From Candidatus Omnitrophota bacterium (GTDB taxonomy: Bacteria > Omnitrophota > Gorgyraeia > Pluralincolimonadales > CAZUZR01), in assembly GCA_043821025.1 (NCBI GenBank), contig JBDRDF010000032.1, forward strand, positions 11,261 to 75,260: DNA of 64,000 bases, read 5' to 3'. Under the pieces are notes generated by a model. The model saw only the letters and a list, made by a program, of their open reading frames with translations, ran no database searches and had not been told where the DNA came from. This document shows, piece by piece, positions 3,192-32,809 of this stretch. How positions within the stretch are numbered: position 1 is the stretch's first letter; each line of letters starts with the position of its first letter. The position numbers were made by a program, and so were the translations under genes.

Positions 3192-3893
3192 ATGCCTAAA
3201 GAAAATATACACGAGGATAATATAGAAGAAAAAGCCAAATTAGAGGCAAGGGTTCGCCGTGAGGTGATGAACCTTTTTATTGAAGAAGCCAAATTAGAGG
3301 CAAGGGCGAAGGAGCAAAAGCAAAGGTTGCTTGAAGAGAAAGAGGAAAAATTAAAAAATAAGACGGCAAAATCAGAGGTCGCTTCTAAAAAAGAAGCGCA
3401 GATCATTAAGATCTCCCCAAAAGAAGAACAACTCGAATTGGATTTAGAAGCGCTTAAGGCTAAAGCGAAAATAGACGACAGGATAAAACGCGAAAAGCGA
3501 AAGGGAAAGAGGATAATTCAAGGGGCCTTCGTTTTGTGCGCTATAATTATTTTGACAACGATAGCGATTTTGAATTCCCCGAAGGAAGTGACTGCGCAAT
3601 ACGACTTAGTTAAAATAAAAGAGTGTCTGCAAAGATCGTCTTCCTATTACGGTCAATTTAAAGTTGAAGATGTAATATTATCTGGCGAGAATCCATCCGC
3701 GACTTTAAGCTTAGGATTTTCTCCAACGACAGAAAGCGATTTAAAAGATTTTGTCGAATCGCTAGTAAAAAGATATACCATGGCCCGTCCCGGAGAGAAG
3801 ATTGACCTTCTTTTAAAAAGAGACCAAAGGGTCTATGCAAAGGCAAGTTATATCCCCCGCACAAATACAATAGATATAGAACTTATGAAATAA
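3192..3893 (+). CDS. Hypothetical coiled-coil membrane protein
   Basis: It has an N-terminal K/E-rich coiled-coil that includes an internal DNA direct repeat (about 3232-3305). It has one TM helix (AFVLCAIIILTTIAIL) and a C-terminal globular part. Confidence 0.35.
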   Translation: MPKENIHEDNIEEKAKLEARVRREVMNLFIEEAKLEARAKEQKQRLLEEKEEKLKNKTAKSEVASKKEAQIIKISPKEEQLELDLEALKAKAKIDDRIKREKRKGKRIIQGAFVLCAIIILTTIAILNSPKEVTAQYDLVKIKECLQRSSSYYGQFKVEDVILSGENPSATLSLGFSPTTESDLKDFVESLVKRYTMARPGEKIDLLLKRDQRVYAKASYIPRTNTIDIELMK

Positions 3894-6213: not shown

Positions 6214-7552
6214 TCCCTGTGAATGCGAAATCTTTTATCAAAAGTGCGGGCACGTATGATGTTTCCATCTGCTGAGTTGGGTCGCCTACCAATTTCCTTT
6301 CCTTTGAAACGCTTCTGATATTCGAAAACGCTCTTAAAATACTCTCCGTGAACCTTAAATTTTTTAAAGGTTTCTTAATTTTTCCGTCCTCGATTAGAAA
6401 TGTGCCATCACGGGTCAGCCCCGTCATCAATGCTTCCGTTGGTTTAAGCAGGCCGTTTATATAATGAAATCTTGTAATAGATATCCCTCTTTTGATAGAC
6501 CTTCGCATATCTTCTATCGATGAATTTCCCGCCCCCATTATTAAATTAAAGGGAAGGGGACCTTCCACCTCATCTGGTAAAAGCGCATGTCCAGTCGAAC
6601 CCTTTTTGTATAGGGTGCCATAATGGCTATCGTAGACAACTCCTTTTGCTGCGCCCTGTTCTATAAGCATTACCTTCTTCTTCGGCGTTCCTTCAAAATC
6701 AAACGGATATATAATGGTTTGAGGATTTAATCCTTCGTCGGATATCGTTACCTCATCAGACATTATCTTCTCATCCATCCTCCCCGATAAGAACGAGGTC
6801 TTCTCATAAAGTTGCTTTGCTCCAAAACCGATATACCCAAGCCATTGCAGGATATCTCCCACTGCCTCGGGTTCTAAGAGGCAGTCGTATCGTCCTAATT
6901 TTATCGGTTGTGGATTTTTTCCGTCCATGCATTTTTTAATCGCCTCGTCGAGAATATTCTGCCAATCTATTTTAGATATGTCCCTCGATATAGCGCTACA
7001 AAATCCCGATGCCCTTCCATCCATCGCAATCAGTTTGAGCGCAGATATGGTTGAAGCTTGATATTTTGCATCTTTATATGAATTTACGACAGCGATTTCC
7101 TCTTCGCCGGTTATAAAAGAACCAGCAAGTTGCAACCCATATTTTTTTGTGGCGGTAAAAATACATGTTAAATTACGTATTCTTTGTTCAAATGAAAAAC
7201 CTATAGTATCTGGAAAAAAGGTCACGACCGAAGGGGTTGCCTCACCAGATGGAAATTTAAATTTGACCTTAGGTTTAGGAGAGACCTTTGCGATTTGAAT
7301 CGCTTTTTTTAATGCCTCTTTTAAATCTTCGGGTTTAAGCGAATTTGTAGATGATACCCCTATCCTCCCGTTTATGTCGATTTTGAAATATATATCTATA
7401 TCCGATTCCTCTATGTCTTGATGTATTCTAAAATTGTGGAATCTGGTGACTCTATCCAAGGTGGCATAACAGCAAATTAGCGTCTGGTCTGCTTTCGACC
7501 ATTTAAGTGCCTGGTTTAATGAATCAAGTAATCTTTCCTTGCCGATCATCAT
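6203..7552 (-). CDS. pmbA: TldD/PmbA family metallopeptidase (PmbA-like, peptidase U62)
   Basis: The length and sequence are typical of PmbA. It overlaps the upstream tldD-like gene by 4 nt. Confidence 0.7.
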   Translation of the reverse strand: MMIGKERLLDSLNQALKWSKADQTLICCYATLDRVTRFHNFRIHQDIEESDIDIYFKIDINGRIGVSSTNSLKPEDLKEALKKAIQIAKVSPKPKVKFKFPSGEATPSVVTFFPDTIGFSFEQRIRNLTCIFTATKKYGLQLAGSFITGEEEIAVVNSYKDAKYQASTISALKLIAMDGRASGFCSAISRDISKIDWQNILDEAIKKCMDGKNPQPIKLGRYDCLLEPEAVGDILQWLGYIGFGAKQLYEKTSFLSGRMDEKIMSDEVTISDEGLNPQTIIYPFDFEGTPKKKVMLIEQGAAKGVVYDSHYGTLYKKGSTGHALLPDEVEGPLPFNLIMGAGNSSIEDMRRSIKRGISITRFHYINGLLKPTEALMTGLTRDGTFLIEDGKIKKPLKNLRFTESILRAFSNIRSVSKERKLVGDPTQQMETSYVPALLIKDFAFTGITE

Positions 7553-10635: not shown

Positions 10636-10663
10636 TTGACATTTTCTTAGAATTGGGTATAAT
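10636..10663 (+). promoter_or_regulatory. Near-consensus sigma70 promoter, TTGACA-16-TATAAT
   Basis: TTGACA is at 10636-10641 and TATAAT at 10658-10663. It is followed by a roughly 100-nt leader ahead of the GTG start at 10767. Confidence 0.55.
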
Positions 10664-10734
10664 TAGTTTCATACAGAAACAAAGTATAGGAGTGCTTATA
10701 TTTTTTGCAAACTTTGTTTCTTTATGAAACAAAG
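10663..10734 (+). promoter_or_regulatory. Two palindromic sites of type TTTGTTTC-N5-GAAACAAA in the leader (candidate operator or RNA hairpins)
   Basis: Site 1 (10663-10683, TTAGTTTCatacaGAAACAAA) overlaps the predicted +1. Site 2 (10712-10734, CTTTGTTTCtttatGAAACAAAG) is a perfect 9-5-9 inverted repeat. A third copy lies at 12691-12713. Confidence 0.4.
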
Positions 10735-10766: not shown

Positions 10767-11474
10767 GTGAAACTAGTGAGAAAAATTGCATTACTAATTG
10801 GGTTGGTAAGTCTTGTATTCTTAGGTCTAACGGCAACAGCGCAAGCTACTATTTGGACGGACAACTTTGATGATGGAGTAGCAGATGGTTGGACCGTAAG
10901 AAAAGGTACCTGGCTTGTCGATGCTGGACAGTATAAGTCTAACGCAGGAGAGAACTATTGGACCGCCTCAACGTTTGACGCAGCGGGTTCGTCCTTCACA
11001 ACAGGGTATGGAAAAACAGACTTTAAGAGGGACTATATCGGGACTGAAACATTAGAGGGAATCCACTTTGGATATGTTCCTAACTCAACCATGTGGTTTG
11101 CAGGCGTATATGAATACGCTCCTGAAAATGCACATGTGATCTTCATCAGGCCGTACACATGGACTGGAACTGACTGGTCACCATCGGCTTCTGGGACCAA
11201 TTTGCCAATCCCTGCTCTTACTGCCGGTAGTTGGTACAACTTATTGTTGGAGGTTTCGGATACGGAAGCGAAATTGACGCTTGGAGGTAATTCCGTTACT
11301 CGTACATTAGCAGGCGTACCAGCTGGGAACATTGGGCTTGGTTCAAGCGTCGGTTGGACATCCTTTGATAATTGGGAAGCAGGGAACCAGCCAATACCAG
11401 AACCGACAAGCCTTCTTTTGTTGGGCTCCGGTTTAATTGGTTTGTTAGCTTTTAGAAAGAAAAGCAAAAGTTAA
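10767..11474 (+). CDS. PEP-CTERM-anchored secreted protein with a concanavalin/LamG-like (DUF1080-like) domain
   Basis: A GTG start is preceded by AAAGGAGGGAGG, and a signal peptide is present. It has FDDGVADGWTVRKGTWLVDAG. The C-terminus is a canonical PEP-CTERM signal (PIPEPTSLLLLGSGLIGLLAFRKKSKS*). Confidence 0.65.
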   Translation: MKLVRKIALLIGLVSLVFLGLTATAQATIWTDNFDDGVADGWTVRKGTWLVDAGQYKSNAGENYWTASTFDAAGSSFTTGYGKTDFKRDYIGTETLEGIHFGYVPNSTMWFAGVYEYAPENAHVIFIRPYTWTGTDWSPSASGTNLPIPALTAGSWYNLLLEVSDTEAKLTLGGNSVTRTLAGVPAGNIGLGSSVGWTSFDNWEAGNQPIPEPTSLLLLGSGLIGLLAFRKKSKS

Positions 11475-11593: not shown

Positions 11594-12658
11594 ATGCATA
11601 GTTTTAAATGTTATATATTTAATTTCATTTTTTTTATTATAACGCTGTCAGTAAGTTCAAACCCACTTGCGCAAGCCGATGGCTACGATAGAGCTATGTG
11701 GGTCTGGGAGCAAAGCACGCGAGACGCCCTCTATAGTCCTTCTCAAAATCAAGAGCTTCTTAATTTTTCTCAGACAAAAGACATCAAAACCTTATACCTT
11801 TACAGCGATTCATATCTGGGTATAAATGACATAATTGAACGCCCCGATTATTATCGTTACTTTATAAGTGAAGCTCATAGTCGGGGTATGCAGGTTCATG
11901 CGCTTCTCGGCTCTATGTATCTTCAGACCTGGGAATATATACTGCCGGAAAAAAGAGAAGATGCTCTTTCGATGGTGAGAAATGTCCTAGAATACAACCA
12001 AAATTCTTCGGCCTCAGAGAAATTTGATGGTTTTAATGTGGATATCGAACCCTATCTTTTGTCCGATTGGGGGGATAACCAACCTTATTATTCCGAACAG
12101 TATCTCGATGCCCTTTCAGCTCAAAAACAGCTCGTCATTAACTCTGGGCAAAATATCGAATATGGACCATGCATTCCGCGTTGGTATGATGAGGTCTCTT
12201 TAATCCAGAATATAACCTGGAACGGTGAAGTTAAGCCATTGTATCAACATTTGCAGGATATAGGTAGCTACGTAACCATAATGGATTATGTAAATGATGC
12301 GGATGGGATTGTAAATAACGCTTCAGATGAGCTTCAATACGCCGATAGTATAAATCGCAAGGTAGTCATAGGTGTAGAAACGCAAGACGTTATACCTTCT
12401 TGGACAACCTTCTACGGATTTAGCGAAGAAGAGATGGAGGCAGTGTTAAATGCTGCCGAAGGTAACTTGAAAAATTATACCTCGTACGATGGATTTGCAA
12501 TACACAGCTACGATTCTTATGCAAAGATGGCTGTAATCCCAGAACCCGGTAACATCATTTTGCTGGGATTAGGGTTAATTGGTTTGTTCGCTTTTAGAAG
12601 GAAAAGAAAAAGCATTAGTTACATTGACAAATTATATTTTTGTGGTATCTTAATATAA
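11594..12658 (+). CDS. PEP-CTERM-anchored secreted GH-A-clan-like TIM-barrel protein (GHL family paralog)
   Basis: A signal peptide is present. It has RAMWVWEQ... and a GFNVDIEPY (D-x-EP) motif. The C-terminus is VIPEPGNIILLGLGLIGLFAFRRKRKS. Confidence 0.6.
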   Translation: MHSFKCYIFNFIFFIITLSVSSNPLAQADGYDRAMWVWEQSTRDALYSPSQNQELLNFSQTKDIKTLYLYSDSYLGINDIIERPDYYRYFISEAHSRGMQVHALLGSMYLQTWEYILPEKREDALSMVRNVLEYNQNSSASEKFDGFNVDIEPYLLSDWGDNQPYYSEQYLDALSAQKQLVINSGQNIEYGPCIPRWYDEVSLIQNITWNGEVKPLYQHLQDIGSYVTIMDYVNDADGIVNNASDELQYADSINRKVVIGVETQDVIPSWTTFYGFSEEEMEAVLNAAEGNLKNYTSYDGFAIHSYDSYAKMAVIPEPGNIILLGLGLIGLFAFRRKRKSISYIDKLYFCGILI

Positions 12659-12690
12659 TAAGAGGAGGTAATAGAAATTTTTTTTGGCCA

Positions 12691-12713
12691 CTTTGTTTCA
12701 GATAGAAACGAAA
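12691..12713 (+). promoter_or_regulatory. Third copy of the TTTGTTTC-N5-GAAAC palindrome, immediately 5' of ATG 12714
   Basis: The sequence is CTTTGTTTCagataGAAACgAAA. Confidence 0.35.
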
Positions 12714-14984
12714 ATGAAGAAGACCTCTAAAACAATAGCATTATTAGTTGTTTTTATATTTATTTTATTCAATAGTTTACCCGCCTGTTTTGCAAGAGAG
12801 AAACAAATTACCCTGACCTTTTGGCAATTAAGCGCAAAAGAAGATTTTATGCGCTTAATTTTGGATGATTTTGAAAAAGAGAATCCCAATATAAAAGTTA
12901 ATATGCAAATTCTCACCTGGGATTATGGTTTTGATAAAATCGTAACTTCGATAGCAGCTGGAAATGCCCCTGATGTATGCGAATTGGGATCTACTTGGGT
13001 GCCAACGTTTTCTACCAGCGGGATATTGGTCGACTTGACCGACGATTTTAAAGATATAAAAGATAAATACTTATTCTGGGAATCTGTGAGTTATGAGGGC
13101 AAGCTATTCGGGGCTCCGTGGCTGGTAGGAACAAGGGCGTTATTTTATAACAAAGATTTATTTAAGCGTGCGGGCTTAGATCCGAATAAGCCCCCAAAGA
13201 CATGGCTTGATTTGTTGGATTATTCCAAAAAAATACACCAACCCGACAAAGGGATTTATGGATTTGGAATTTATGTTGGTGAGCCGTATGCTCCCTGGCA
13301 ACTCTTTCTCCCCTTCGCTTGGTCAAACGGTGCGGATGTCTTAAGCCCAGATTTTAAGACCTCCCTCATTACTTCGCCAGAATTTCAAGAGACGTTGGAA
13401 TTTTACAACATATTAAAGGCGTATTCAATTCATGATAGGCAGGCCCAAATAAATCAGGCATTTGCCGAAGGAAAGGTTGGCATACAAATCTCCGGCGCTT
13501 GGAACCTAATCCTCATTTCCCAAAATAACCCGGAGTTAAATTACGGCGTCGCAATAGTTCCTCGACCCGACCTAGATATAGGAAGACCCGTTTCATTTGC
13601 TGGCGGTGAAGTTTTTGTGATATTTAAACAGACCAGACAAAAGGAAGCAGCCGTTAAGCTAATGAAATTTTTATTAAGGGAAGAGAATATTATGAAGGTG
13701 GTTAAATCCCAGAAGAACGTCTTGCCATCCAGTAAGGAGAGCATCCGCCACCCCTATTTTAAAGAGCAGCCCAATCAAAGAATTTTCTTCGAACAGATGA
13801 TGAGCTCGGTGGCGGCTCCAGAACATCCAAGTTGGCCAAAGATAGAAGAGCATTTAACGAGGGCAATAGAGGAAGTCGTCCTTTTAGATGTGTCTCCAAA
13901 GGAAGCTCTGCAAAAAGCGGATTTAAAAATCAATGACATTTTGAAAAGCAAAAAGATAAAAGCGGGTCTTAGCGATAAAATCTTATCTTGGATTTTCATT
14001 GTATTTATCTTTTCAGCCGGGTTAATAATTTATTTATGGCAAAGGTTCAAGAAGAGAGAAATGGTGCCAGCAACTAAGTTAAGATTTAAGAAAATTGCCA
14101 CAGGTTATCTGTTCATCTTTCCCTGGCTTCTGCTGTTTTTTATTTTTTCGCTTTTTCCATTAATCCATTCGATAATAATCAGTTTTTCCGACTATAATCT
14201 TCTTGAGGCCAGGTTTTCTTTTATAGGTTTTAAAAATTATTTGGATGTTATGTTCGATCCTCATTTTCATAAAGCCCTTTGGCATACCATTTTCTTCGCC
14301 GTAGGGACCGTACCCTTTACGACGACTATCGCTTTATTCTGCGCTCTGTTAATAAATCGAAAATTACCTTTTAAACAACTATATCAGGCAGGCCTATTTT
14401 TGCCGGTTGTTACCTCGGTGATTGTAATTGCCAGTATATTTAGTTATGTCTATTCTCCCGATGGCTTATTGAACATCATCATCGATAGGACAGGGACATT
14501 CTTAAGTAAGTTTGGTATCCATGGCATACAGAGTCCAAAACCGAGCTGGTTATTAAATACGAAGTTAGCCTTGCCCAGCATAATGGCTATGTGCGTCTGG
14601 TCGAGCTTCGGCTATTACACCATTTTGTTTTTGGCCGGGCTTCAAGCCATTTCTCAGGAGATGTACGAAGCAAGTGCTATAGACGGCGCTAATTGGTGGG
14701 GCCAGTTTCGCTGGGTTATTTTGCCACAACTTAAGCCCATAATGTTATTTATCATCGTAATTAATAGCATCCGCTCCTTTCAGGTATTCCCGGAGATATT
14801 TGCAATGACCCAAGGAGGGCCGTTGGGCTCGACGACCACCGTCGTCTATCATCTTTATGAGATGGGGTTCCATAGATTTGAAATGGGAATGGCTTCGGCC
14901 GTTGGCTATATTTTATTTATTGTCATAATGTGCCTTACATTAGCCCAGCTTAAGATATTTAAATTTGGGGAAAGCGTAGGATAA
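12714..14984 (+). CDS. Fusion of an ABC sugar-transporter substrate-binding protein (family 1) with a MalF/UgpA-type permease
   Basis: The N-terminal roughly 430 aa form an extracellular solute-binding domain with a signal peptide. An extra TM helix follows (SWIFIVFIFSAGLIIYLW), then a 6-TM permease with an EAA loop (LAGLQAISQEMYEASAIDGANWWGQFRWVILPQ). It is a single uninterrupted ORF. The track's longer TTG start is at 12684. Confidence 0.65.
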   Translation: MKKTSKTIALLVVFIFILFNSLPACFAREKQITLTFWQLSAKEDFMRLILDDFEKENPNIKVNMQILTWDYGFDKIVTSIAAGNAPDVCELGSTWVPTFSTSGILVDLTDDFKDIKDKYLFWESVSYEGKLFGAPWLVGTRALFYNKDLFKRAGLDPNKPPKTWLDLLDYSKKIHQPDKGIYGFGIYVGEPYAPWQLFLPFAWSNGADVLSPDFKTSLITSPEFQETLEFYNILKAYSIHDRQAQINQAFAEGKVGIQISGAWNLILISQNNPELNYGVAIVPRPDLDIGRPVSFAGGEVFVIFKQTRQKEAAVKLMKFLLREENIMKVVKSQKNVLPSSKESIRHPYFKEQPNQRIFFEQMMSSVAAPEHPSWPKIEEHLTRAIEEVVLLDVSPKEALQKADLKINDILKSKKIKAGLSDKILSWIFIVFIFSAGLIIYLWQRFKKREMVPATKLRFKKIATGYLFIFPWLLLFFIFSLFPLIHSIIISFSDYNLLEARFSFIGFKNYLDVMFDPHFHKALWHTIFFAVGTVPFTTTIALFCALLINRKLPFKQLYQAGLFLPVVTSVIVIASIFSYVYSPDGLLNIIIDRTGTFLSKFGIHGIQSPKPSWLLNTKLALPSIMAMCVWSSFGYYTILFLAGLQAISQEMYEASAIDGANWWGQFRWVILPQLKPIMLFIIVINSIRSFQVFPEIFAMTQGGPLGSTTTVVYHLYEMGFHRFEMGMASAVGYILFIVIMCLTLAQLKIFKFGESVG

Positions 14985-15001
14985 TCTAAAGGGATATTTT
15001 T

Positions 15002-16192
15002 ATGAGAGAAAAGAGAAAGCTTAATATCGCAATAACCATTTTATTATTGATCATCGTGGTTTTTACTTTATTCCCACTTTTTTTAATGTTCAGCACCTCT
15101 TTAAAAGCCACAGGCACATTGGCCAAGAAAGTAACTCAAATTGTTATCGCGGATTTTAATAGGGAAGAAAATGGATATAAAAAGATAGAATTCACCGCAG
15201 ATGAGTCAGGCGATTTTATATGGAACGCGCATATCGACCAAGATATACGAAAGTTCAGTAAATTAGAATTCCTTTATAAGGCGGAAGGGGATTATAAATT
15301 TAAAATAGGTTTAATAGATACGCTGGGAAAAAGCAGTTTTTTAGAGATATCTAAATACGCGATAGAAAAAGAAACCGAGTGGCAGAAGGTAACGATACCC
15401 ATAAACGACTTTGATTTAAAAACTATTGACCCAAGGATGGTGGAAGGACTTGCTATCGTCTCCGATGCGCCCCGTTCTGGCACTATTTATCTGGACGAAA
15501 TTGTTTTGTGTATTAAAAAGGTCACTCTTATAAATTACGTCGATGTTTTAGTCAGCGGGCCATTCGGCCGTTATTTCTTTAATAGTTTTTTGATTTCTAT
15601 TTTGGTTACGTTTGGGAATATTTTGTTCTGTTCAATGGTGGCCTATTCCTTCGCAAGAAAGGAATTTCCAGGGAAGCACGCATTATTTCTTTTGATAATC
15701 GGCAGCATAATGATCCCACCTCAAGTCTTAATGGTCCCGATGTTTATACTGATGAAAAACATCCATTGGTTAAATACTTATTGGGCACTCATCATTCCAG
15801 CCTTAACTGAGCCCTTTAATATATTTTTGTTGCGTCAATATATTAGCGGCCTGCCAAAAGATTTGGAAGATGCGGCTATAATAGATGGCGCAAATGATTG
15901 GCAGGTGCTTTTCAAGGTTATTATGCCTTTGTCAAGGCCAGCGTTGGCAATAGTGGGCATTAATACTTTTATGGGAAGCTGGAATACATTTTTGTATCCA
16001 TTTTTGTTGACCAATACGACCGAGATGCGGACATTGCCGGTTGGCCTCGCTCTCTATAAGAGTTTATACAGCGTTGACTGGACTCATTTGATGGCGGCTT
16101 CCAGCATAACGGCCATACCTGTTATTATTGTATTTTTGTGCTTTCAACGACATATCATCGCTGGTCTTACCGCAGGAGCTCTTAAAGGATAG
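15002..16192 (+). CDS. MalG/UgpE-type ABC permease with a CBM11/CIA30-like domain inserted in the first extracytoplasmic loop
   Basis: After TM1, about 130 aa match the CBM-like family (EFLYKAEGDYKFKIGLIDT...EWQKVTIPINDF...GTIYLDEIVL). A permease core follows with an EAA loop (LLRQYISGLPKDLEDAAIIDGANDWQVLFKVIMPL). Confidence 0.65.
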   Translation: MREKRKLNIAITILLLIIVVFTLFPLFLMFSTSLKATGTLAKKVTQIVIADFNREENGYKKIEFTADESGDFIWNAHIDQDIRKFSKLEFLYKAEGDYKFKIGLIDTLGKSSFLEISKYAIEKETEWQKVTIPINDFDLKTIDPRMVEGLAIVSDAPRSGTIYLDEIVLCIKKVTLINYVDVLVSGPFGRYFFNSFLISILVTFGNILFCSMVAYSFARKEFPGKHALFLLIIGSIMIPPQVLMVPMFILMKNIHWLNTYWALIIPALTEPFNIFLLRQYISGLPKDLEDAAIIDGANDWQVLFKVIMPLSRPALAIVGINTFMGSWNTFLYPFLLTNTTEMRTLPVGLALYKSLYSVDWTHLMAASSITAIPVIIVFLCFQRHIIAGLTAGALKG

Positions 16193-16202
16193 CGCAATTA
16201 AA

Positions 16203-17216
16203 ATGGAAACTGGGGTAAGTTATTTCGCAAACAGGGATTTAAGGCACGTAAAAAGCGATTTAGTTGCAATGAGAAAAAATCATTGCAGTTACGTCGTACA
16301 TACATTTTCGGAAATAGACCTTCAATATTATAAAGAGAACATGCGTCAAATTGTAGCTGCAAGCGTTGAGGTTGGTTTGGAAGTGAGGATTGACCCGTGG
16401 GGAGTGGCAGGGCTATTTGGAGGGGAGGCCTATTCATATTTCGTTGCAGAGAAATTAGAGACAAGACAGATCGTATCCGATGGCAGAAGTGTGCCGCTTG
16501 CGTGCCCAAACAATCCTCAAGCTCGTCTTTTTTTGAGGCGTTGGATGGACGAAGTCATTGATTTAGGCGCCAAAATTATTTTCTGGGATGAGCCGCACTT
16601 TTATGAACCCCATTGGGTAGGCGATAAGGATGAGGAGCTTTGGGGATGTAAATGCGGTTGCTGTCAGAATTCTTTTAAAGAACGTTTCAATCACAAGATG
16701 CCCGATACTTTAACCGACGAAATAGAAGATTTTAAACAGCAGAGTTTAATCCTTTTCTTAAAGGAGTTATGTGACTATTCGAGTTCAAAGGGATTGAAAA
16801 ATAGCGTTTGTCTGTTGCCGAATGCGAAACATTTAGAGAGCGGTTTTTGGGATGAAATAGCGGAGATAAAGTCGCTCGATAATATTGGGACCGATCCTTA
16901 CTGGGTTGAGATTAAAAAAACCGAAAGGAATTTTAATCTGAACGCTTATATTAGAAAATTTTGTAAGAAAATAAATCAACTGTCGAAATCCCATAAGAAA
17001 GAAGGGCATATCTGGATTCAGAATTTTTCTATTCCATCTGGATGGGAAGGCGATATTAAGACCGTTGCGGACATCGCTTATGAGGAAGGCATTAGAGATA
17101 TAGCTGCTTGGAGCTATTACGGTACAAGTGGTATGTCAAGCAAGGCATGCGATAATCCCGAATTAGTTTGGGATGTTTTAGGAAAATCTTATAAGGAGCT
17201 ATTGCGTAAAGAGTAG
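16203..17216 (+). CDS. Cytoplasmic GH-A-clan-like TIM-barrel protein (putative glycosidase, paralog of the GHL family)
   Basis: It has no signal peptide. It has IIFWDEPHFYEP (D-EP) and an RIDPWG motif. The start is taken at ATG 16203, 10 nt after the permease stop. Confidence 0.35.
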   Translation: METGVSYFANRDLRHVKSDLVAMRKNHCSYVVHTFSEIDLQYYKENMRQIVAASVEVGLEVRIDPWGVAGLFGGEAYSYFVAEKLETRQIVSDGRSVPLACPNNPQARLFLRRWMDEVIDLGAKIIFWDEPHFYEPHWVGDKDEELWGCKCGCCQNSFKERFNHKMPDTLTDEIEDFKQQSLILFLKELCDYSSSKGLKNSVCLLPNAKHLESGFWDEIAEIKSLDNIGTDPYWVEIKKTERNFNLNAYIRKFCKKINQLSKSHKKEGHIWIQNFSIPSGWEGDIKTVADIAYEEGIRDIAAWSYYGTSGMSSKACDNPELVWDVLGKSYKELLRKE

Positions 17217-17220
17217 GGCA

Positions 17221-19596
17221 ATGAAATACGGATATTTCAGCGAAGACGGTAAGGAATATATCATCGACAGTCCGCTTACCCCGCGGCCGTGGTTTAACTA
17301 CCTTTTTAATAAAAAATATCACGCCCTTGTATCGCAAACAGGCGGCGGATTTAGTTATTATAAGGACCCCAAGGTTAACAGGATATTGCGCTACGATCAC
17401 ATCCATACCGACCGTCCGGGTAGATATCTATTTCTGCGCGATGAAACTACGAACGAATTCTGGTCAGCAAATTGGCAGCCGTTGAAATCCAAATTGGATT
17501 TTTGGCAATGCCGTCACGGTTTAGGCTATAGCGTAATCGCCTCTAAATATAAAGGAATAGGGACGGAACTGACCTATTTTGTGAATTTACAAGAGCCAGT
17601 CGAATTCTGGCTCATCAAAGTAAAAAATGATTCTAAGCGCAAGAAGATCTTAAAGATTTTTCCATTTGCGGAATTGGTTTGCGGTAATATCGAATTAGAG
17701 AATAATTATAGGAATATACTTTGTTTATATAATGAGGGGTATTTCGATAAGAAATTAAACGGCATAGTTTCTTTTAAACACCCGTTTAAAAAAGAACATA
17801 AGGTAACTTATACCTTTTTTGGTATGGATGAAAAGATAGATGCTTTCGATTGCCACAAAGGAAAGTACTTCGGCCGTTACAACGATAATCAAAATTCCGA
17901 AACCTTAAAGCGTGGCAAGTTGGGTAATAACAATGTTCGCGGCGAAGATATGGTAGCTGTCTTGGAGAAAAAATTAATTTTAAAGCCAGGTCAAAAAAAA
18001 GAGATCGTGGTTATTTTGGGCGTTGCCGAAAGCGAGCGCGATTTAAAAAGAATAGCGAAATTTAAAAATTTGAAATTTGCTAAAAATTCTTTAAAGGCAA
18101 ATAAGCTATATTGGGAAAAGGCATTGGATAAGATCATAGTTAAGACGCCGGATCCAGATTTCGATCTAATGGTGAATATCTGGGGCAGATATCAACTATA
18201 TGCCATTACTTGCTGGCGCGGCACTTCCCAATATCACGGCGGAGAAGGTGGATTGGGCTATCGCGATACCGCTCAGGACATTGAGGGGCTTTTGGCTTTG
18301 GATTTAGATTTGGCAAGAGAAAAATTAGACAAGATACTTTATTATCAATATAACTCTGGCCATGCTGTCTCCGGTTTTTCGGATGTAGAGGGTTCTTGGG
18401 ATAAGCACACAGGCAGTATTGTAATAGGAAAGGCGGATGTGGCTATTTGGTTGGTTTTTACAGTGATCTCATATCTTAAAGAGACAGGGGATTTCAAGTT
18501 CTTAAAAAAGGAATATGGCTTTCACGATGGCGGAAAAACCACTGTATATGAACATATACTAAGAGCGATAAGATATTTATATAGTCAGCGCGGAAGACAC
18601 GGCCTTCCGTTTATTAAAAAGGCTGATTGGAATGACGCTTATGACTCGGTCGGAATAAAAGGAAAAGGAGAAAGCGTCTGGCTTGGGATGGCGTTGGTTA
18701 GAGCCTGTCGGCAAATAGAATCGTTGGCTAATTTTATTGGCGATAGAAAAATAGCCGAGGAGATGAAAGAGAAATCCCGTCTCTTAACCAAAATCATTAA
18801 TAGAGCGGGATGGGATGGAAATTGGTACTTAGCAGCTTTTAACGACGAAGGATTTAAGATAGGGTCAAATAAAAACAAAGAGGGCAAAGTGCCTCTTAAT
18901 AGCCAAACCTGGGCGATTTTGAGCGAACTAGTTCCGCGGGAGAGACTTAAAAAAATCCTAAATAAGATCGACAATTATTTAAATACCGAATATGGCCCGG
19001 TATTATTTTTGCCGTCCTATACAAAATTTAATCCCGGAATCGGAAGGGTTACTGCATTCGCCGCCGGAACGAAGGAAAATGCAGCTGTCTTTTCTCATGC
19101 CTGCGCTTTTAAAATTGTGGCGGATTGTATATTAGGTCGGGGCGATAAAGCCCACGAGACATTTAAAAAATTATGTCCTATGAGTAAAGCTAAGAGCGAT
19201 CACGATAAATATAAAGCCGAGCCATACGTATGGGCAGAATATGTTATCGGGCCAGGAAATAAGGACAATTTCGGCGAAGGTGCATTTACATGGAATACCG
19301 GCACAGCACCATGGATGTTTATGGCTGCCTGCGAATGGATATTAGGGGCGAGGAGGGATTTCGGAGGGCTGCTAATCGACCCGTGCATACCAAAGCACTG
19401 GAGGAGATGTTCTATAAAAAGGCCTTTTAGAGGAGCGACCTATTTGGTCGAAATCGAGAACCCTAAAGGGGTGGAGCATGGGGTTGATAAGCTTATAGTC
19501 GACGGCGTCGAAGTAAAAGGAAATTTAATCAAGCCTCACGGCGACGGAAGAACTCATAACGTTAAGGTGATAATGGGCAATGGTAGGGATAGGTAA
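17221..19596 (+). CDS. GH94-family glycoside phosphorylase (cellobiose/cellodextrin/beta-glucan phosphorylase-like)
   Basis: It is 791 aa with an (alpha/alpha)6-barrel-type sequence (GGEGGLGYRDTAQDIEG...KAEPYVWAEYVIGPGN...LLIDPCIPKHW). The domain order is typical of cellobiose phosphorylases. Confidence 0.65.
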   Translation: MKYGYFSEDGKEYIIDSPLTPRPWFNYLFNKKYHALVSQTGGGFSYYKDPKVNRILRYDHIHTDRPGRYLFLRDETTNEFWSANWQPLKSKLDFWQCRHGLGYSVIASKYKGIGTELTYFVNLQEPVEFWLIKVKNDSKRKKILKIFPFAELVCGNIELENNYRNILCLYNEGYFDKKLNGIVSFKHPFKKEHKVTYTFFGMDEKIDAFDCHKGKYFGRYNDNQNSETLKRGKLGNNNVRGEDMVAVLEKKLILKPGQKKEIVVILGVAESERDLKRIAKFKNLKFAKNSLKANKLYWEKALDKIIVKTPDPDFDLMVNIWGRYQLYAITCWRGTSQYHGGEGGLGYRDTAQDIEGLLALDLDLAREKLDKILYYQYNSGHAVSGFSDVEGSWDKHTGSIVIGKADVAIWLVFTVISYLKETGDFKFLKKEYGFHDGGKTTVYEHILRAIRYLYSQRGRHGLPFIKKADWNDAYDSVGIKGKGESVWLGMALVRACRQIESLANFIGDRKIAEEMKEKSRLLTKIINRAGWDGNWYLAAFNDEGFKIGSNKNKEGKVPLNSQTWAILSELVPRERLKKILNKIDNYLNTEYGPVLFLPSYTKFNPGIGRVTAFAAGTKENAAVFSHACAFKIVADCILGRGDKAHETFKKLCPMSKAKSDHDKYKAEPYVWAEYVIGPGNKDNFGEGAFTWNTGTAPWMFMAACEWILGARRDFGGLLIDPCIPKHWRRCSIKRPFRGATYLVEIENPKGVEHGVDKLIVDGVEVKGNLIKPHGDGRTHNVKVIMGNGRDR

Positions 19597-20698
19597 AAAT
19601 TTTTTAAAGGAAAGTAATCGAAGACTTATCTTAAAGGTCATCTATGAGAATTCACCTATATCGAGGACTCAGATAGTCAGGCATACGAATTTGAGTAAGG
19701 TAACCGTAACGAGGATCGTCAACGAATTGATTAAAAGCGGCCTTGTATTTGAAGGCGAGCAAACCGCTTCCAGCGGAGGCAGGCCTCAGGTTCTTATAAG
19801 GTTGATTCCCGACGCAAGGTATGCTATCGGTGCTGATATTGGAATTTCAGATGTTAAAATCGGTGTGTGCGATTTAAGGTGCAATGTACTTTTTAAGTTA
19901 GAAAAAAAGATCACGCCAAAGATCGAAAGTAACAAATTGGCCGAACTTTTATTTAATTCAGTAAAAGAACTGATAAGATCATCAAATGTTCATGCCGATA
20001 AGGTACTGGGAGTGGGAATCTCTATGCCCGGGGTTATAGACGCTGATAAAGGTATAGTCAAATCATCATTTATTTTAAGCGAACGAAATGTACCATTGGA
20101 GGGAATTTTGGAAAATAAACTTAAGTTGAACGTCGTTGTCGATAGAGACGCTAACGCAGGATTATTTTACGAAAGATTTATGGGTAAAGGCAAGGATATC
20201 GATGATATACTATATATTTATACCCGTAAGAATGAAGCGGGAGAAATGGGAGTCGGCTGCAGTTTCCTTCTTGATAGTCAGATATATCGCGGGGCGGATT
20301 ATTGCGCGGGAGAGATCGGTTTAGCCCACAGCGACGATGAAAAAGAAGCGATTTTTGAGCCATTTTCTTCTTATGAATCAATCCCGTTTCGCAACGCTAT
20401 GCAAGCCGCAAAAAATGGAGATGAACAAGCAAATAAAATTTTATTCGAGGTAGGTGAAAAGATCGGACAGGGAATTTCATTTTTGGTCAATTTGCTAAAT
20501 CCGAAATTGGTGATCGTAGGCGGAGATTTTTCCATGGCGGGAGAGCCGTTTTTTAAATCGCTGGCAAATTCTCTTGAGAGGCATATTTTTGATTTTTCAA
20601 CTAAAGATATAAAGCTCGAATCCTCTTCAGCCGACGAATATTCCGGTATAAAAGCAGCTGCCTTTATGGTCATAGCTAAAACAGTGGGATATAAATGA
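19580..20698 (+). CDS. ROK-family transcriptional regulator (N-terminal wHTH plus sugar-kinase-like domain)
   Basis: It has an N-terminal HTH (ISRTQIVRHTNLSKVTVTRIVNELIKSGLV) and ROK motifs (GVGISMPGVID, GCSFLLDSQIYRGADYCAGEIG). Confidence 0.7.
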   Translation: MVGIGKNFLKESNRRLILKVIYENSPISRTQIVRHTNLSKVTVTRIVNELIKSGLVFEGEQTASSGGRPQVLIRLIPDARYAIGADIGISDVKIGVCDLRCNVLFKLEKKITPKIESNKLAELLFNSVKELIRSSNVHADKVLGVGISMPGVIDADKGIVKSSFILSERNVPLEGILENKLKLNVVVDRDANAGLFYERFMGKGKDIDDILYIYTRKNEAGEMGVGCSFLLDSQIYRGADYCAGEIGLAHSDDEKEAIFEPFSSYESIPFRNAMQAAKNGDEQANKILFEVGEKIGQGISFLVNLLNPKLVIVGGDFSMAGEPFFKSLANSLERHIFDFSTKDIKLESSSADEYSGIKAAAFMVIAKTVGYK

Positions 20699-20714: not shown

Positions 20715-21335
20715 ATGAAAAGGAATATTAAATTTTGTTGTGCGCTATTAGTCTGCATGTTTTTTGTATTTAGCGCTTTTAAAACAGCTGAAGCAGAGGT
20801 AAAGTTGATAGATGATTTTAAAGGACAGGAAAACCTTTTAGGTGGGAAAAGCAATGTGTACCAGCAGGAACCTTCCAGAGCCTACCTTAGTAGAAAGGCA
20901 GTAGAACGAGATGGAAAGAGCGAGATGGTGCTTATGATCAAATACGATAAGAAGAACAAGGGTGGCTCTTATGACTCCGGAGGCTGGTGCGGCTATTATA
21001 CCTTGCTCAAGACAGATAGCACATATTTTGACATTTCAAAGTATAAAAATCTTACATTGTGGGTTAAAGGCGCCCAAGGAGATGAAAATTTTAAAGTGGG
21101 ATTAGCGGATAGGCATTGGGAGCAAGCAGATGATTCAGTCAAATCCGACCAGATAGGCGCCTATCTTAAAGCAGGGAAAATAACCACTGATTGGCAGAAG
21201 GCGACCATACCCCTAAATCTATTCTTAATCGATTTTACCGAAATGTCTTCGCTCGCTATATGTTTTGAAAGCGAGTGTTTTCCTGACGGCAGTGGCATGG
21301 GCACAGTTTATATTGACGATATAGCCTTAGAGTAA
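20715..21335 (+). CDS. Secreted CBM11/CIA30-like domain protein (paralog)
   Basis: An SD sequence (AAAGGAGGAG) and a signal peptide are present. It has GGWCGYYTLLK, LTLWVKGAQGDENFKVGLADRHW, DWQKATIPLNLF and GTVYIDDIALE. Confidence 0.55.
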   Translation: MKRNIKFCCALLVCMFFVFSAFKTAEAEVKLIDDFKGQENLLGGKSNVYQQEPSRAYLSRKAVERDGKSEMVLMIKYDKKNKGGSYDSGGWCGYYTLLKTDSTYFDISKYKNLTLWVKGAQGDENFKVGLADRHWEQADDSVKSDQIGAYLKAGKITTDWQKATIPLNLFLIDFTEMSSLAICFESECFPDGSGMGTVYIDDIALE

Positions 21336-21339
21336 ACAG

Positions 21340-23610
21340 ATGGGACTTAATTTTAAAGGGAATAAAAAAGTATTCTTCATAATAGCGATTGTAGTTATTA
21401 TTTTGTTTATAGCGGCGACATCTATATTTTTCGTTACAGAGATACAGGAATTCAAAGAGAAAATCTTTGAAATAGTAGAAAAGCCTAAAGGGGAATTATT
21501 AAAGCCAATTCTAATCGACGATTTTAACAAAGGTTTTACCAGCGGCCTATTTTATGAACGGATTAATTCCCTCGGGGGCTACCAAGGTACTTGGGCGAAG
21601 AGACCATCCTATAGCCTTATAAATAAGAGCTCAGAAGATAGAATCGGAGAAAAAGGCAAAGCATTAGTTATAGAGTTTAAGAAGGAAGCCGGTTGGTGCG
21701 GCTGGTATACATTATTAAATGGGCTTGATGCCAGCAGATATAATACGTTAAGTTTCTGGGTTAAAGGTGCCGAAGGAGGAGAAAAGTTTGATATAGGCAT
21801 TGCGGATAGCGAAATGCAAGAATTGGAGATAGATGCTGTTTATATTGGAAGTATAAATGCCTTTCTGCGGAAAGGAGTTACCAAGCGTTGGCAGGAGGTA
21901 AAGATTCCATTGTCTAGGATAGCCGGTGAGGTCAATTTTTCATCGTTAGGATCGGTTGTTTTCTGGTTTAAATATGCGGGAGCAGGCAAGATTTATGTGG
22001 ACGATATGATGTTCAGAGATGACCCGGAGATCGCAAGGATTGAAAGGTATAATACCCCAAAGGCAAGATATGCCCGCAGACATCCCCGAGCGATGTGGGT
22101 TTGGAAGACAGACCCGATAATCAATTTGATTGCGAGAGAAAAACTGTTTGAATTTTGCAGGACAGCAGCTATTAAGACCATCTATCTTTATCTTGGGGAT
22201 TTACCAGAAGACACCGAAAAGTTGAGCCAATTCTTAACGGAAGCCCATAACAAGAAAATTTTGGTAGAGGCCTTGACGGGTAACCCCGTATGGTGCCTTA
22301 GTGAAAATCACCAGCTGACCTTGAATTGGATTAAGTCGTTCCTGGAATATAATAAATTCAGGATTTCACGAGAACGGATCGATGGAATCTCTTTGGACGT
22401 CGAGCCATATTTGACATCTGAGTGGGTGCAGGATAGGGAGTCCGTTAAGCGGCAGTATATTGAAATGCTAAGGAAGTGTAGACAACTCATCGATTCCTAT
22501 GAACAGGATTTTCGCTTTGGAGTGGCAATTCCGATATTTTTCGACAAAGAGGAAGATGGACTTTTTGAACAGAGAACGTTAGAGTTAGTCGATTATTGCG
22601 CTTTAATGGATTATTATGATGACGCTCCAAATTTAATCAAAAATGCAAAAAACCATATCGCATTAGCCAAAAAGGCTGGCAAGAAGATGGTCGTGGGAGT
22701 GGAGACACAAGACCTTATCAGTATGCACCAGGGTTTAAGGCGCAATACATTTTTTGAAGAAGGTTGGGAAGCAATGGAGAAGGCGTTGTTGAAACTTATA
22801 AAGAAATATAAGAATAGCCCCGCTTTTGAAGGTGTTGCAATTCATTGTTACGAAAGCTACAGGCTTCTTCCAAAAGGAAGGAACGTCCCGACAAAGGAGA
22901 GGCCAAAAGACGTCCGTTCGTTTGCTTCCATTGGGAGAAGAGGCCGGATAATAATCGATGGACGGTTAGACGATTGGGATACCTCGCTACCTTTCCTTCT
23001 CGATAAGAAGGAAGATATAGTGTTTGGAAGCGGCGGTTGGAAAGGCAAGGAGGATTTTAGCGTCGAAGTTTTTAGCCAGTGGGATGCAGAAAATCTATAT
23101 TTCGCTTTTAAGATAAAAGATGATAAGTTAGTTCAGGAGAAAAGCGAAGGCGATATGTGGGAAGGAGATCACGTAGAGCTTTGGTTAGATGTCGACCTTC
23201 TTGGGGATTATAATGAAGCGATCAATAGCAGTGACGATTTTCAATTTGGATTTAGCCCGGGTAATTTTTCAACGCTACCCGCAGAGGTATACATTTGGAC
23301 TCCCCCCTTAGAAGATATGAATTACAAAGACTACATAGCGATAGGGTCGGCGAAGGTCGACAATGGATATATTATAGAAGCGAAAATTCCTAAAGGAGTC
23401 CTATTTTCCAAGCTGAATGAAGATAGGAAAGTTGAGGCGGAGCCGCTTAATGAATTGCCGAAGCGTTTTTCTAAGGGCATGAAGATGGGAATCGGCATAG
23501 ACCCCAGCGAGTGCGATGGCTTAAATGAACCGCAGAAACTTATGATGTCGTCGGCTAAAGAGAGGATTTGGGGCGATCCGACAACATTTATCATATTGGA
23601 GTTAAAATGA
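21340..23610 (+). CDS. Membrane-anchored multidomain protein: CBM11/CIA30-like domain + GH-A-like TIM barrel + C-terminal CBM9/DOMON-like domain
   Basis: It has an N-terminal TM helix. The CBM-like domain reads AGWCGWYTLLNG...LSFWVKGAEGGEKFDIGIADS...RWQEVKIPL...GKIYVDDMMF. The TIM barrel has RAMWVWKTD and GISLDVEPY. The C-terminus has DGRLDDWDT...SQWDAENLYFAFKIKDD...GDHVELWLD. Confidence 0.5.
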   Translation: MGLNFKGNKKVFFIIAIVVIILFIAATSIFFVTEIQEFKEKIFEIVEKPKGELLKPILIDDFNKGFTSGLFYERINSLGGYQGTWAKRPSYSLINKSSEDRIGEKGKALVIEFKKEAGWCGWYTLLNGLDASRYNTLSFWVKGAEGGEKFDIGIADSEMQELEIDAVYIGSINAFLRKGVTKRWQEVKIPLSRIAGEVNFSSLGSVVFWFKYAGAGKIYVDDMMFRDDPEIARIERYNTPKARYARRHPRAMWVWKTDPIINLIAREKLFEFCRTAAIKTIYLYLGDLPEDTEKLSQFLTEAHNKKILVEALTGNPVWCLSENHQLTLNWIKSFLEYNKFRISRERIDGISLDVEPYLTSEWVQDRESVKRQYIEMLRKCRQLIDSYEQDFRFGVAIPIFFDKEEDGLFEQRTLELVDYCALMDYYDDAPNLIKNAKNHIALAKKAGKKMVVGVETQDLISMHQGLRRNTFFEEGWEAMEKALLKLIKKYKNSPAFEGVAIHCYESYRLLPKGRNVPTKERPKDVRSFASIGRRGRIIIDGRLDDWDTSLPFLLDKKEDIVFGSGGWKGKEDFSVEVFSQWDAENLYFAFKIKDDKLVQEKSEGDMWEGDHVELWLDVDLLGDYNEAINSSDDFQFGFSPGNFSTLPAEVYIWTPPLEDMNYKDYIAIGSAKVDNGYIIEAKIPKGVLFSKLNEDRKVEAEPLNELPKRFSKGMKMGIGIDPSECDGLNEPQKLMMSSAKERIWGDPTTFIILELK

Positions 23611-24866
23611 TTAGAAAGATTACGCTGGCAGGGATATTTATTATTTTATTGTGCAGGAATAACCTCGCTTATCCGGATGGGGTGCTCCTCCAAGACATGC
23701 CGCAGCTTCCTAAAGATGCTGCTCTCGACGAAAGGGAAGATATGTTCGGATATCGAGGCAGGGTGGGCGCATTTGTTCTACCCCCTTCTAGGGTAGGGGT
23801 CTATTTTGATGATTCGGAAAATTATGTCCCTGCCGGTAAGGAGGTAAAAGAACCGACCGAAGCACCTAAGGTAGATACTGGCGTAAAAGGTGGCGTGAAA
23901 GAATTTATGCGAGAAGATGAGTCGATCAAGATAACATATGAAAAGGCAGTAGGAGATAAGACTTTTTGCGGGGCATATATTGTAATCAAAGGCGACCTGT
24001 CCAAATATAAAACTATGACTTTTATGATTAAGGGAAAAACAGGCGAGGAAACATTTGAAATCGGAATGAACGATGTCATATCCAATCGCAGAGAGGATGC
24101 GGTTATGATTGGCTCCGTCCATCGTTTTTTGTCAGACGGCATAACGAACGATTGGCAGGAAGTGAAAATTCCACTTTCGGATTTTTATGGGCCGGATTTA
24201 TCGAAAGTTTATAGTATAATTTTTCATTTTAACGAAGAGGGAAAAGGAACTTTCTGGATCGATGACATCCGTTTCCACGAAGAACTCTTGGTCGATAGAG
24301 AAAAGGAGATTCGAAAGAAGGGATACCTTCTTTTAGACGATTTCGATCACGCAACCACGGTGAACCTTTTGGCTCGGAAAACGAACACGTATAAGAAATT
24401 GCCGTCGGTTTGTCGTATGGCGTGGGATAAAAATGTCCGTTACGGAGATAAAGGGCGGTCACTAAAATTAATTTATGATAAGAAATCGGCGGGTTGGTGC
24501 GGGTATTATACCCTGCTTAACCAAATTGACGGAGAATATTACGATTTATCCGGCTATGACAGGGTATCTTTTATGGTCAGGGGAGAGAAAGGCGGTGAAT
24601 CCTTCGAGTTGGGTATGGCTGACAAAAATTGGCTTATCATCGGAGATTCTTTAAAGGCAGGGCAAATCGAGAAATATCTTCCTTCCGGAGTTACTACCGA
24701 ATGGCAAGAGGCGGTAATTCCATTGAAGGATTTTGGGATGTTGGATTTTTCGGAGATGGGTTCCTTCGTCATCAATTTTAATAAAAAACAGAGCAGCGTC
24801 GTTTATATCGATGATATTAAGTTTCATTTAACCAAATCAGAAAGAAAAGAAGGAGGGGGCCAATGA
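23606..24866 (+). CDS. Secreted protein with two tandem CBM11/CIA30-like domains
   Basis: The ATG overlaps the upstream TGA (ATGA). Domain 1 has FCGAYIVIKGD...MTFMIKGKTGEETFEIGMND...DWQEVKIPLSDF...GTFWIDDIRF. Domain 2 has AGWCGYYTLLNQ...VSFMVRGEKGGESFELGMAD...EWQEAVIPLKDF...VVYIDDIKF. Confidence 0.55.
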
Positions 24867-25528
24867 GGATTTCATTTTTCTTATTGTTTGCGATTATATG
24901 CGTAACGAGCTTTATTTTCGAAGCTTATGCTGAAGAGACTGAAGCTGAAGGATATTCTGTGGCAAAAGTCCCGGAGATGAAATTCAAAATCGATGATTTT
25001 GAAAGAAACGAGATGCTAAATTATTTGAACGGCAAGGCGAATGTGTATGTTATGGCACCTTCTCGAATTATGGTCTCTGTAAGAGAAGATGTATATCAGG
25101 GAGAGAAGACCAATGTTTTAATGCTTAAATACGATAAGAAGAACGAAGGCGGCCCTTATGAAACCGGCGGTTGGTGTGGGTATTACTCCCTTTTAAAGAA
25201 CGAGAAGAAAGGGGAATATTTCAATGCCAGCAGGTTCAAATATCTGACCTTTTTAGTTAAAGGCACCAAGGGAGACGAGAATTTTAAAGTAGGCGTAGCG
25301 GACAGACATTGGGATAAAATCGGAGATTCCCTTAAATCGGAACCGATAGGAAAATATCTGTCTGCAGGAAAACTTACTACCGATTGGCAAATTGCCAGAA
25401 TTCCTTTGGATGTCTATTTTCTCGATTACACAAGATTATCCTCGATTGCAATATGTTTTGAGGGCGATTGTTTTCCCAACGGAGCGGGAAGCGGCACCGT
25501 TTATTTCGATAATGTCGCTTTTGAATAA
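24863..25528 (+). CDS. Secreted CBM11/CIA30-like domain protein (paralog; closest to 20715..21335)
   Basis: It has GGWCGYYSLLKNE, LTFLVKGTKGDENFKVGVADRHW, DWQIARIPLDVY and GTVYFDNVAFE. Confidence 0.55.
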   Translation: MRISFFLLFAIICVTSFIFEAYAEETEAEGYSVAKVPEMKFKIDDFERNEMLNYLNGKANVYVMAPSRIMVSVREDVYQGEKTNVLMLKYDKKNEGGPYETGGWCGYYSLLKNEKKGEYFNASRFKYLTFLVKGTKGDENFKVGVADRHWDKIGDSLKSEPIGKYLSAGKLTTDWQIARIPLDVYFLDYTRLSSIAICFEGDCFPNGAGSGTVYFDNVAFE

Positions 25529-25535
25529 AAGGCAA

Positions 25536-26882: not shown

Positions 26883-26892
26883 AAGGAAAATT

Positions 26893-28239: not shown

Positions 28240-28240
28240 A

Positions 28241-31114: not shown

Positions 31115-31840
31115 GTGGGTTTATTAGAGAAAAAAGAGGACATAAGAGAACTGGTAGATACTCTAAATTTTAAACAGAAAGTGGACAGGTCCTTAGCCCT
31201 GATAAAAGAGGCTTATGAGAAATACGGCGAAGGCCTGGTGGTAGCCAATAGTTTGGGCAAGGATTCGATGGCGGTTTGGGATTTAGCCAAAAAGGTTAGC
31301 CCTAATATACGGGGATTTATTGTTACGACGCGTTTTAAGCCTAAAGAGACTATTCAGTTTATGTATGAGACTGTCGCGCGTTACCCCGAGCTTAAAATTT
31401 ATAAAAGTGATGTAGAAATACCAGATAAACTTTATGAAACCGACCCAGATAGATGCTGCGATTTATTAAAAGTAGAGCCGACGCGTCGGGCGATTGAAGA
31501 AATGAAGGTAAAATGCTGGGTTACGGGCTTACGTTGCACTGAAGGAAGAACACGCACAGATTTTAAGGAAGTTGAGGAGCGCGACAAGGGCCTGATTAAA
31601 CTAAATCCTATTCTTATTTGGAAAGAAAGAGAGGTCTGGCAATATCTGGCTCTCAACGGTGTGAAAGTAAACCCCCTATATGCCCAAGGTTACAGGTCTT
31701 TGGGCTGTGCGCCCTGCACAAATATTACGAGTGAAGAAGATGAGCGTGCTGGGCGTTGGATTGGCACCAGCAAATGTGGCGGAGAATGCGGGATTCATAC
31801 CAGGCCTTTAAAAATAAATGTAGAAGGAGACGGGATTTGA
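31115..31840 (+). CDS. cysH: Assimilatory adenylyl-sulfate/phosphoadenylyl-sulfate reductase (CysH family; the Fe-S Cys pairs suggest the APS-reductase type)
   Basis: A GTG start is preceded by AAAGGAGAG. It has the PAPS-reductase fold, a CC...CxxC signature (DRCCDLLK, LGCAPC) and a C-terminal KCGGECGIH motif. Confidence 0.7.
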   Translation: MGLLEKKEDIRELVDTLNFKQKVDRSLALIKEAYEKYGEGLVVANSLGKDSMAVWDLAKKVSPNIRGFIVTTRFKPKETIQFMYETVARYPELKIYKSDVEIPDKLYETDPDRCCDLLKVEPTRRAIEEMKVKCWVTGLRCTEGRTRTDFKEVEERDKGLIKLNPILIWKEREVWQYLALNGVKVNPLYAQGYRSLGCAPCTNITSEEDERAGRWIGTSKCGGECGIHTRPLKINVEGDGI

Positions 31841-32808: not shown

Positions 32809-32809
32809 T

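Follow-up and report, generated by a model that had tools for sequence, protein, structure and literature searches.

Three conserved palindromes at the promoters and leaders of a GH94 disaccharide-phosphorylase operon from the Omnitrophota are probable operators of the ROK regulator encoded in the same operon

ROK-family regulators bind palindromic sites, which are 23 bp long in the set described for the Thermotogae, including that of ChiR (PMC3553997). ChiR (TM0808) is a ROK repressor of an autoregulated chitobiose operon, and chitobiose has been shown experimentally to be its effector (PMC3553997). The sites of NagC and Mlc are quasi-palindromes of 23 bp in which TT and AA at ±5,6 alone are invariant, strong NagC sites carrying in addition C/G at ±11 (PMC4288165), and in the Mlc-DNA structure the arginines of the wing enter the A/T-rich minor grooves around ±9 (PMC13482132). 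For their part, the XylR sites of Bacillus contain GTTT-N7-AAAC, and the site mapped in P. polymyxa is ACTTAGTTTAAGCAATAGACAAAGT (PMC9104551). At the protein level, a Gly-Arg-rich linker or wing after the HTH has been described for ROK regulators (PMC4288165), and Mlc bears a Zn-binding motif in its oligomerisation domain (PMC13482132).

The stretch of DNA analysed here (the window) comprises 64 kb. Database proteins 100% identical to its ROK protein and its SBP-permease belong to a Candidatus Omnitrophota MAG. Reading the sequence revealed three 23-bp palindromes of the form CTTTGTTTC-N5-GAAACAAAG, spanning 2.05 kb and all located at promoter or leader positions. These sites, designated O1 to O3, and the promoter elements that accompany them are as follows:

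10636..10663, + strand: promoter P1, TTGACA-16-TATAAT, 12/12 consensus, with a conserved A-rich stretch upstream
10662-10684: O1, ATTAGTTTC ATACA GAAACAAAG, one mismatch to TTTGTTTC-N5-GAAACAAA
10712-10734: O2, CTTTGTTTC TTTAT GAAACAAAG, perfect 9-5-9
12624..12651, + strand: internal promoter P2, found by promoter scan, TTGACA-16-TGG-TATCTT with an extended -10
12678..12685, + strand: T8 run, 5 nt upstream of O3, conserved in all relatives
12691-12713: O3, CTTTGTTTC AGATA GAAACGAAA, one mismatch, with ATG 12714 immediately 3'

The initial annotation had reported three copies of the palindrome, one of them a perfect 9-5-9 at 10712-10734, and direct reading of the sequence bore out both the copies and their coordinates (the full sequence of O1 is ATTAGTTTCATACAGAAACAAAG). 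A search of the window for TTTGTTTC-N5-GAAACAAA that tolerated a single mismatch gave 3 sites, compared with 0 in each of 100 dinucleotide-preserving shuffles. Relaxing the threshold to three mismatches or fewer added one match in the window, at 5526, which is the level expected by chance. A symmetrised position weight matrix made from 7 sites gave a bimodal distribution, O1 to O3 scoring 28 to 32 and the best other position in the 64 kb reaching 12.4. In view of the shuffle control and this score gap, the palindrome recurs far beyond chance. Similarly, the GTTT-N7-AAAC core occurs four times in the window, and three of these occurrences are O1 to O3. A literature search with the sequence of the motif returned nothing relevant.

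The promoter proposed at 10636-10663 matches the consensus at all 12 positions, and O1 starts within its -10 hexamer and spans the predicted +1, in agreement with the earlier suggestion that the first copy overlaps the transcription start. The -35, the -10 and the upstream A-tract of P1 are conserved in the alignment with one of the related loci, L087. O2, centred 50 bp downstream of O1, falls within the leader that precedes the first PEP-CTERM gene, whose GTG start at 10776 is preceded by a GGAGGGAGG ribosome-binding site. P2 lies across the 3' end of the second PEP-CTERM gene, and the promoter's TTGACA and TGTGGTAT blocks are kept in L087, L092 and L166; the L089 counterpart has TTGAAA as its -35 and no clear-cut promoter. 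O3 is placed at about +34 to +56 of P2. It abuts ATG 12714, the NCBI-annotated start of the SBP-permease gene (P0047), as had been stated for the third copy, and occupies the position expected for the Shine-Dalgarno sequence of this gene.

The element AAGAGGAGG (12660-12669), previously described as Shine-Dalgarno-like, was rejected as the ribosome-binding site of the SBP gene, given that it lies 45 nt from the ATG and is conserved in leaders that precede nagA; it is instead a conserved leader element. The leader-type site of L089 likewise touches a start codon, that of nagA (regions compared: window 12660-12716, L087 8031-8097 and L089 5885-5935). Every genome examined, that of the Aureabacteria among them, has a run of 7 to 9 T residues that precedes the leader-type operator by 5 to 6 nt (L087 8046-8054; L092, about 148-156; L164 9-15; L166, about 3385-3392). 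The run could possibly bend the DNA, belong to a longer site or act in the RNA.

O1 to O3 stand at the head of a long series of + strand genes, which is listed here together with the region that follows it:

10776-11474 and 11594-12658, + strand: two genes for PEP-CTERM surface proteins (Pfam PEP-CTERM), the first genes of the operon
12714-14984, + strand: SBP-permease fusion of 756 aa (P0047; Pfam)
15002-16192, + strand: second permease (Pfam)
16128-17216, + strand: ORF for a conserved protein of unknown function
17221-19596, + strand: GH94 disaccharide phosphorylase (Pfam; PDB comparison)
19580-20698, + strand: ROK-family regulator, winged HTH plus ROK sugar-binding domain
about 20715-30588: CBM30/CBM9 proteins, a 496-aa protein, two GlmM-like mutases and a PHO4 transporter
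31115-46193: after the operon, a cluster for sulfur assimilation and siroheme/haem synthesis, with PAPS reductase, GluTR, uroporphyrinogen methylase/synthase, ALAD, sulfite reductase, ThiF, ThiS-PALP proteins, and a porphobilinogen deaminase fused to a low-molecular-weight phosphatase domain
31756-32382: truncated second PHO4 ORF

The order of the transport and catabolic genes (12714..19596) is conserved in relatives. The SBP and the ABC permease are joined in a single polypeptide of 756 aa, a fusion found in more than 60 protein clusters, mostly from Omnitrophota, and no ATPase gene was found in the locus. The ORF at 16128-17216 had no match in Pfam, NCBIfam or the PDB sequences; a counterpart is present in L089, L094, L095, L133 and L166, and its true start probably lies near 16195. 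The 496-aa protein (25392-26882) had no Pfam match. The second PEP-CTERM protein (11594-12658) shares about 30% identity with the middle portion of the large CBM30/CBM9 proteins encoded downstream in the relatives' loci (compared with 21340-23610), and the locus may thus encode a family of proteins that bind glycans at the cell surface.

In the relatives, nagA and nagB belong to the same gene cluster, and in L087, L089 and L092 they lie between the O3-type leader and the SBP gene. The window locus, unlike these, lacks nagA and nagB. Their loss from between the P2 leader and the SBP-permease gene has fused the leader and O3 straight onto ATG 12714, with no Shine-Dalgarno sequence. The end of the operon (26893-30588) encodes two tandem GlmM-like phosphohexosamine mutases and the PHO4 phosphate transporter, which fit a phosphorolytic route that uses phosphate and yields a sugar-1-phosphate. 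Given nagA/nagB in the relatives, the GlmM-like mutases and the phosphate transporter, the locus fits the phosphorolysis of chitobiose to GlcNAc and GlcNAc-1-P. Naming the effector from the similarity of the GH94 enzyme was tried and discarded, cellobiose and chitobiose phosphorylases being about equally similar to it in the PDB comparison; that the window locus itself has no nagA or nagB also counts against naming a single effector. Taken together, the operators most likely serve an autoregulated GH94 disaccharide-phosphorylase operon for chitobiose.

The last 17 nt of the GH94 gene are shared with the start of the ROK gene, which argues that the regulator is co-transcribed with the operon and autoregulated. 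Pfam assigned HTH_24/MarR and ROK domains to the protein, with an N-terminal winged HTH followed by a sugar-kinase-like domain, and its PDB matches were Lmo0178, Mlc and XylR; among solved structures, Lmo0178 and XylR (4ija) were the closest to its DNA-binding domain. The wing, SSGGRPQ, lines up with the GGR that Lmo0178, XylR and others carry, and the recognition helix is SKVTVTRIVNEL. The best NCBIfam models were NagC (160 bits versus a cut-off of 650) and Mlc (139 versus 530). Judged by these comparisons, the window ROK would work like NagC or XylR without being orthologous to either of them or to Mlc.

The Zn-binding motif (His plus CxCGxxGC) is absent from the window protein, with no cysteines after AGEIG (residues about 245-275). 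This region is shortened across the clade (P0001-P0007 and the L166 protein), with a larger deletion in some members. In Mlc, the Zn-binding motif shapes the oligomer interface. The lack of this motif in the clade counts against the sites being ROK operators, by way of oligomeric state and looping, as do NagC and Mlc scores so far below the equivalog cut-offs.

Conservation in relatives was examined with two probes. The ROK orthologues led to contigs whose first base in each case falls within or beyond the GH94 gene, short of the promoters; no sites were found in their 11 to 12 kb of operon body, where the downstream gene order is conserved. Contigs reaching upstream were found through the SBP-permease. 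A scan of the genome collection with this protein gave only distant relatives (≤42% identity), unusable for footprinting. The metagenome scan gave mostly Omnitrophota loci that have a different ROK type and lack the motif.

The motif was present at homologous promoter or leader positions in four other Omnitrophota loci and in one locus of Candidatus Aureabacteria, so that motif and ROK clade orthologues are found in six loci of two candidate phyla. The 9 sites collected from the 6 loci align gap-free, with TT (columns 6-7) and AA (17-18) invariant in all nine. In the footprint alignments the -35, the -10 and the operator arms are conserved, the 5-nt spacer varies and the flanks diverge.

The closest relative, L087/L088, has an SBP 71% identical to that of the window and three sites. 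The O1 orthologue (L087 5048-5070) takes the same position on the -10/+1 of a TTGACA promoter, with its arms kept and its spacer changed. An O2-like site (7205-7227) lies upstream of the homologous first PEP-CTERM gene, and an O3-like site lies in the nagA leader after a TTGACA..TGGTATGAT promoter. No promoter is recognisable next to the site at 7205-7227, which counts against an operator function. L092 and L089/L090 contributed one nagA-leader site each. The more distant Omnitrophota locus L166 (SBP 57%, ROK 42% identical) carries CTTTGTTAA AGTAA GAAACTAAC, whose left arm has partly diverged, in the same arrangement of promoter, T run and operator. In the Aureabacteria locus (L164), the ROK protein is 37% identical and its recognition helix SKVTVTRIVNEL is identical; the site, TCTTTGTTTC TGGAA TAAACAAAC, falls within the only 57 nt present upstream of the SBP gene.

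Every motif locus whose contig extends far enough carries a ROK of the same clade. The regulator is on the contig itself in L087/L088, L166 and L164 (37 to 56% identical to that of the window). L089 ends inside the GH94 gene, and a 53%-identical ROK is linked to it only through contig L082 of the same sample, the two meeting at GH94 residue 537. Similarly, the L092 contig ends inside the GH94 gene, and no ROK gene is visible on it. Several independent assemblies of relatives break inside GH94 (contig ends of L082, L085, L086 and L089), which may reflect strain variation or a repeated segment.

The motif was absent from the Omnitrophota loci with the other ROK type (L094, L095, L098-L100 and L133), a protein of 405 aa and about 30% identity whose loci share the same transporter and GH94 genes. 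In the rest of the 2.59 Mb of collected loci it was also absent, save for two matches with two mismatches, in L155 and L158. A different palindrome, ATAGCATAATTATATGCTAT, was seen between the -35 and the -10 of the SBP-gene promoter in L098 (6460-6479) and L100 (2853-2872); this palindrome is tentative and may be the operator of the other-type ROK paralogue.

On this evidence, the three palindromes are very probably DNA operators of the ROK repressor encoded at 19580-20698 of the same operon. The initial annotation had suggested the operator of a dimeric repressor, for example the neighbouring ROK regulator, and the suggestion gains support from the co-occurrence of motif and regulator, the conserved positions and the geometry. 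The sites show what is seen at known ROK operators: a palindrome of about 23 bp, TT/AA at ±5,6 together with GTTT-N7-AAAC, and a place in the promoter or leader of a ROK-linked sugar operon. The sites themselves, where they lie, their conservation and their company with the regulator are observed; that the ROK protein binds them, that it represses and does not activate, and which sugar is the effector are inferred.

We propose that a repressor dimer would sit on each 23-bp site, CTTTGTTTC-N5-GAAACAAAG. By analogy with solved ROK-DNA complexes, its recognition helices would contact the GTTT/AAAC cores and its Gly-Arg wings would enter the A/T-rich minor grooves of the outer positions. Covering the -10 and the +1 of P1, a repressor on O1 would block initiation; O2 could strengthen repression cooperatively or act as a roadblock, and O3, in the P2 leader, would block transcription of the transporter, GH94 and ROK genes. 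O2 and O3 (the latter at about +34 to +56) lie downstream of the starts, an arrangement weaker for repression than promoter overlap, and this counts against the proposal. Induction would follow when a sugar made or imported by the pathway releases the repressor, the effector being most likely chitobiose or a GlcNAc derivative, with cellobiose as another candidate. With the regulator gene inside the operon, such a circuit would be self-regulating. The analysis covered 64 kb of the genome, and with it this part of the putative regulon.

It is unlikely that the sites, though operators, belong to some other transcription factor whose gene lies in another part of the genome, rather than to the locus ROK. 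This possibility draws on the fact that each genome was seen in part, on the pairing of protein and site being deduced, and on the atypical ROK clade without the Zn motif. Against it, the motif tracks the ROK clade in two phyla and is missing where the other ROK type is found; the 23-bp geometry, the TT/AA at ±5,6 and GTTT-N7-AAAC are hallmarks of ROK sites (PMC4288165, PMC9104551, PMC3553997); and no other regulator gene is conserved across these loci.

A further reading gives the O3 type a function at two levels, in which the DNA would bind the Zn-less ROK and, in the transcript, a hairpin with the U-run would control translation initiation in the absence of a Shine-Dalgarno sequence. It stems from the conserved T run and the contact with the start codon in two genomes, and we give it a low probability.

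The initial annotation had also offered leader-RNA hairpins as an alternative, which would stabilise or process the mRNA or mask the SBP-permease start codon. That the palindromes are purely such stem-loops in the 5' leaders is decidedly unlikely. O2 and O3 are indeed transcribed, O2 on its own folds at -10.8 kcal/mol (z = -3.6), O3 of the window and the L089 site abut a start codon at the Shine-Dalgarno position, and one L087 site has no adjacent promoter. However, O1 and its L087 orthologue straddle the -10/+1, which leaves the left arm outside the RNA. Among the 9 sites there are 0 compensatory changes, each variant either breaking a pair or giving G-U; 16 of the 81 cells do not pair, and column shuffles pair at least as well. 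What is conserved in the arms is the half-site sequence and not the ability to pair. Folding of the leader, which had been advised as a check, gave weak hairpins for O1 and O3 (-4 and -6.3 kcal/mol, not significant), and the O2 hairpin is absent from the fold of the complete P1 leader. The leaders had no match in Rfam, and the stems, with no U-tract behind them, are not terminators.

Finally, recurrence of an AT-rich palindrome by chance, or as a functionless short dispersed repeat, would be in keeping with the AT-rich, low-complexity sequence and with the lone half-sites also present in the window, but it has a negligible probability against the empty shuffles, the wide score gap to background and the confinement of all copies to promoter or leader positions within 2.05 kb, and it is contradicted by the conservation of orthologous sites whose flanks and spacers diverge.

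To our knowledge, the Omnitrophota have no cultured representatives, and our literature search found no transcription-factor sites described for them. The locus offers this phylum a concrete candidate pair of regulator and operator together with a promoter architecture, in which consensus sigma-70 promoters, an extended -10 and putative operators are visible in one place. An operator type with GTTT-N7-AAAC appears to be kept with its regulator across Omnitrophota and Aureabacteria, which would take the ROK operator code well outside the Firmicutes, Proteobacteria and Thermotogae. The motif lends itself to regulon mapping in MAGs, and the results support annotating the locus as an inducible system for the phosphorolysis of chitobiose or a beta-disaccharide. 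The arrangement would be a regulatory switch of an ordinary kind, newly seen in a phylum about which little is known, and reveals no new mechanism.

Compared with the described systems, the sites can be assigned by their features to the class of ROK operators, the lineage and the particular motif being new and the mechanism classic. The resemblance to XylR of Bacillus and Paenibacillus lies in GTTT-N7-AAAC, which all three window sites contain within similar flanks; the P. polymyxa site ACTTAGTTTAAGCAATAGACAAAGT closely resembles O1, ATTAGTTTCATACAGAAACAAAG. Both regulators are winged-HTH ROK repressors released by a sugar, a release that is proposed for the window protein. In contrast to the xylose isomerase and kinase of the XylR systems, the genes here are a GH94 disaccharide phosphorylase and an ABC transporter, in another phylum; the window protein lacks the Zn motif, and ±3 is fixed as C/G, giving GTTTC/GAAAC.

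With NagC, O2 shares T,T at -6,-5, A,A at +5,+6 and C/G at ±11, and with Mlc the match is between TTT/AAA at ±8-10 and a protein with an SSGGRP wing. As with NagC and Mlc of Escherichia coli, several operators are found per regulated region, and NagC sites are known to cooperate. The window ROK differs from both in scoring below the equivalog cut-off and in having no Zn finger, and the arms of its putative sites are far more sequence-specific than the degenerate NagC/Mlc logo.

The organisation of the locus resembles that of the ChiR operon, with a 23-bp palindrome and a ROK gene inside an operon with an ABC transporter, and the ChiR operon also has nagA/nagB. The ChiR site, AAGTTGTTTGCGGCATGCAACTA, is unlike the motif described here, and Thermotoga uses the hydrolase CbsA whereas this locus encodes a GH94 phosphorylase; a single operator serves the ChiR operon, compared with three in the window.
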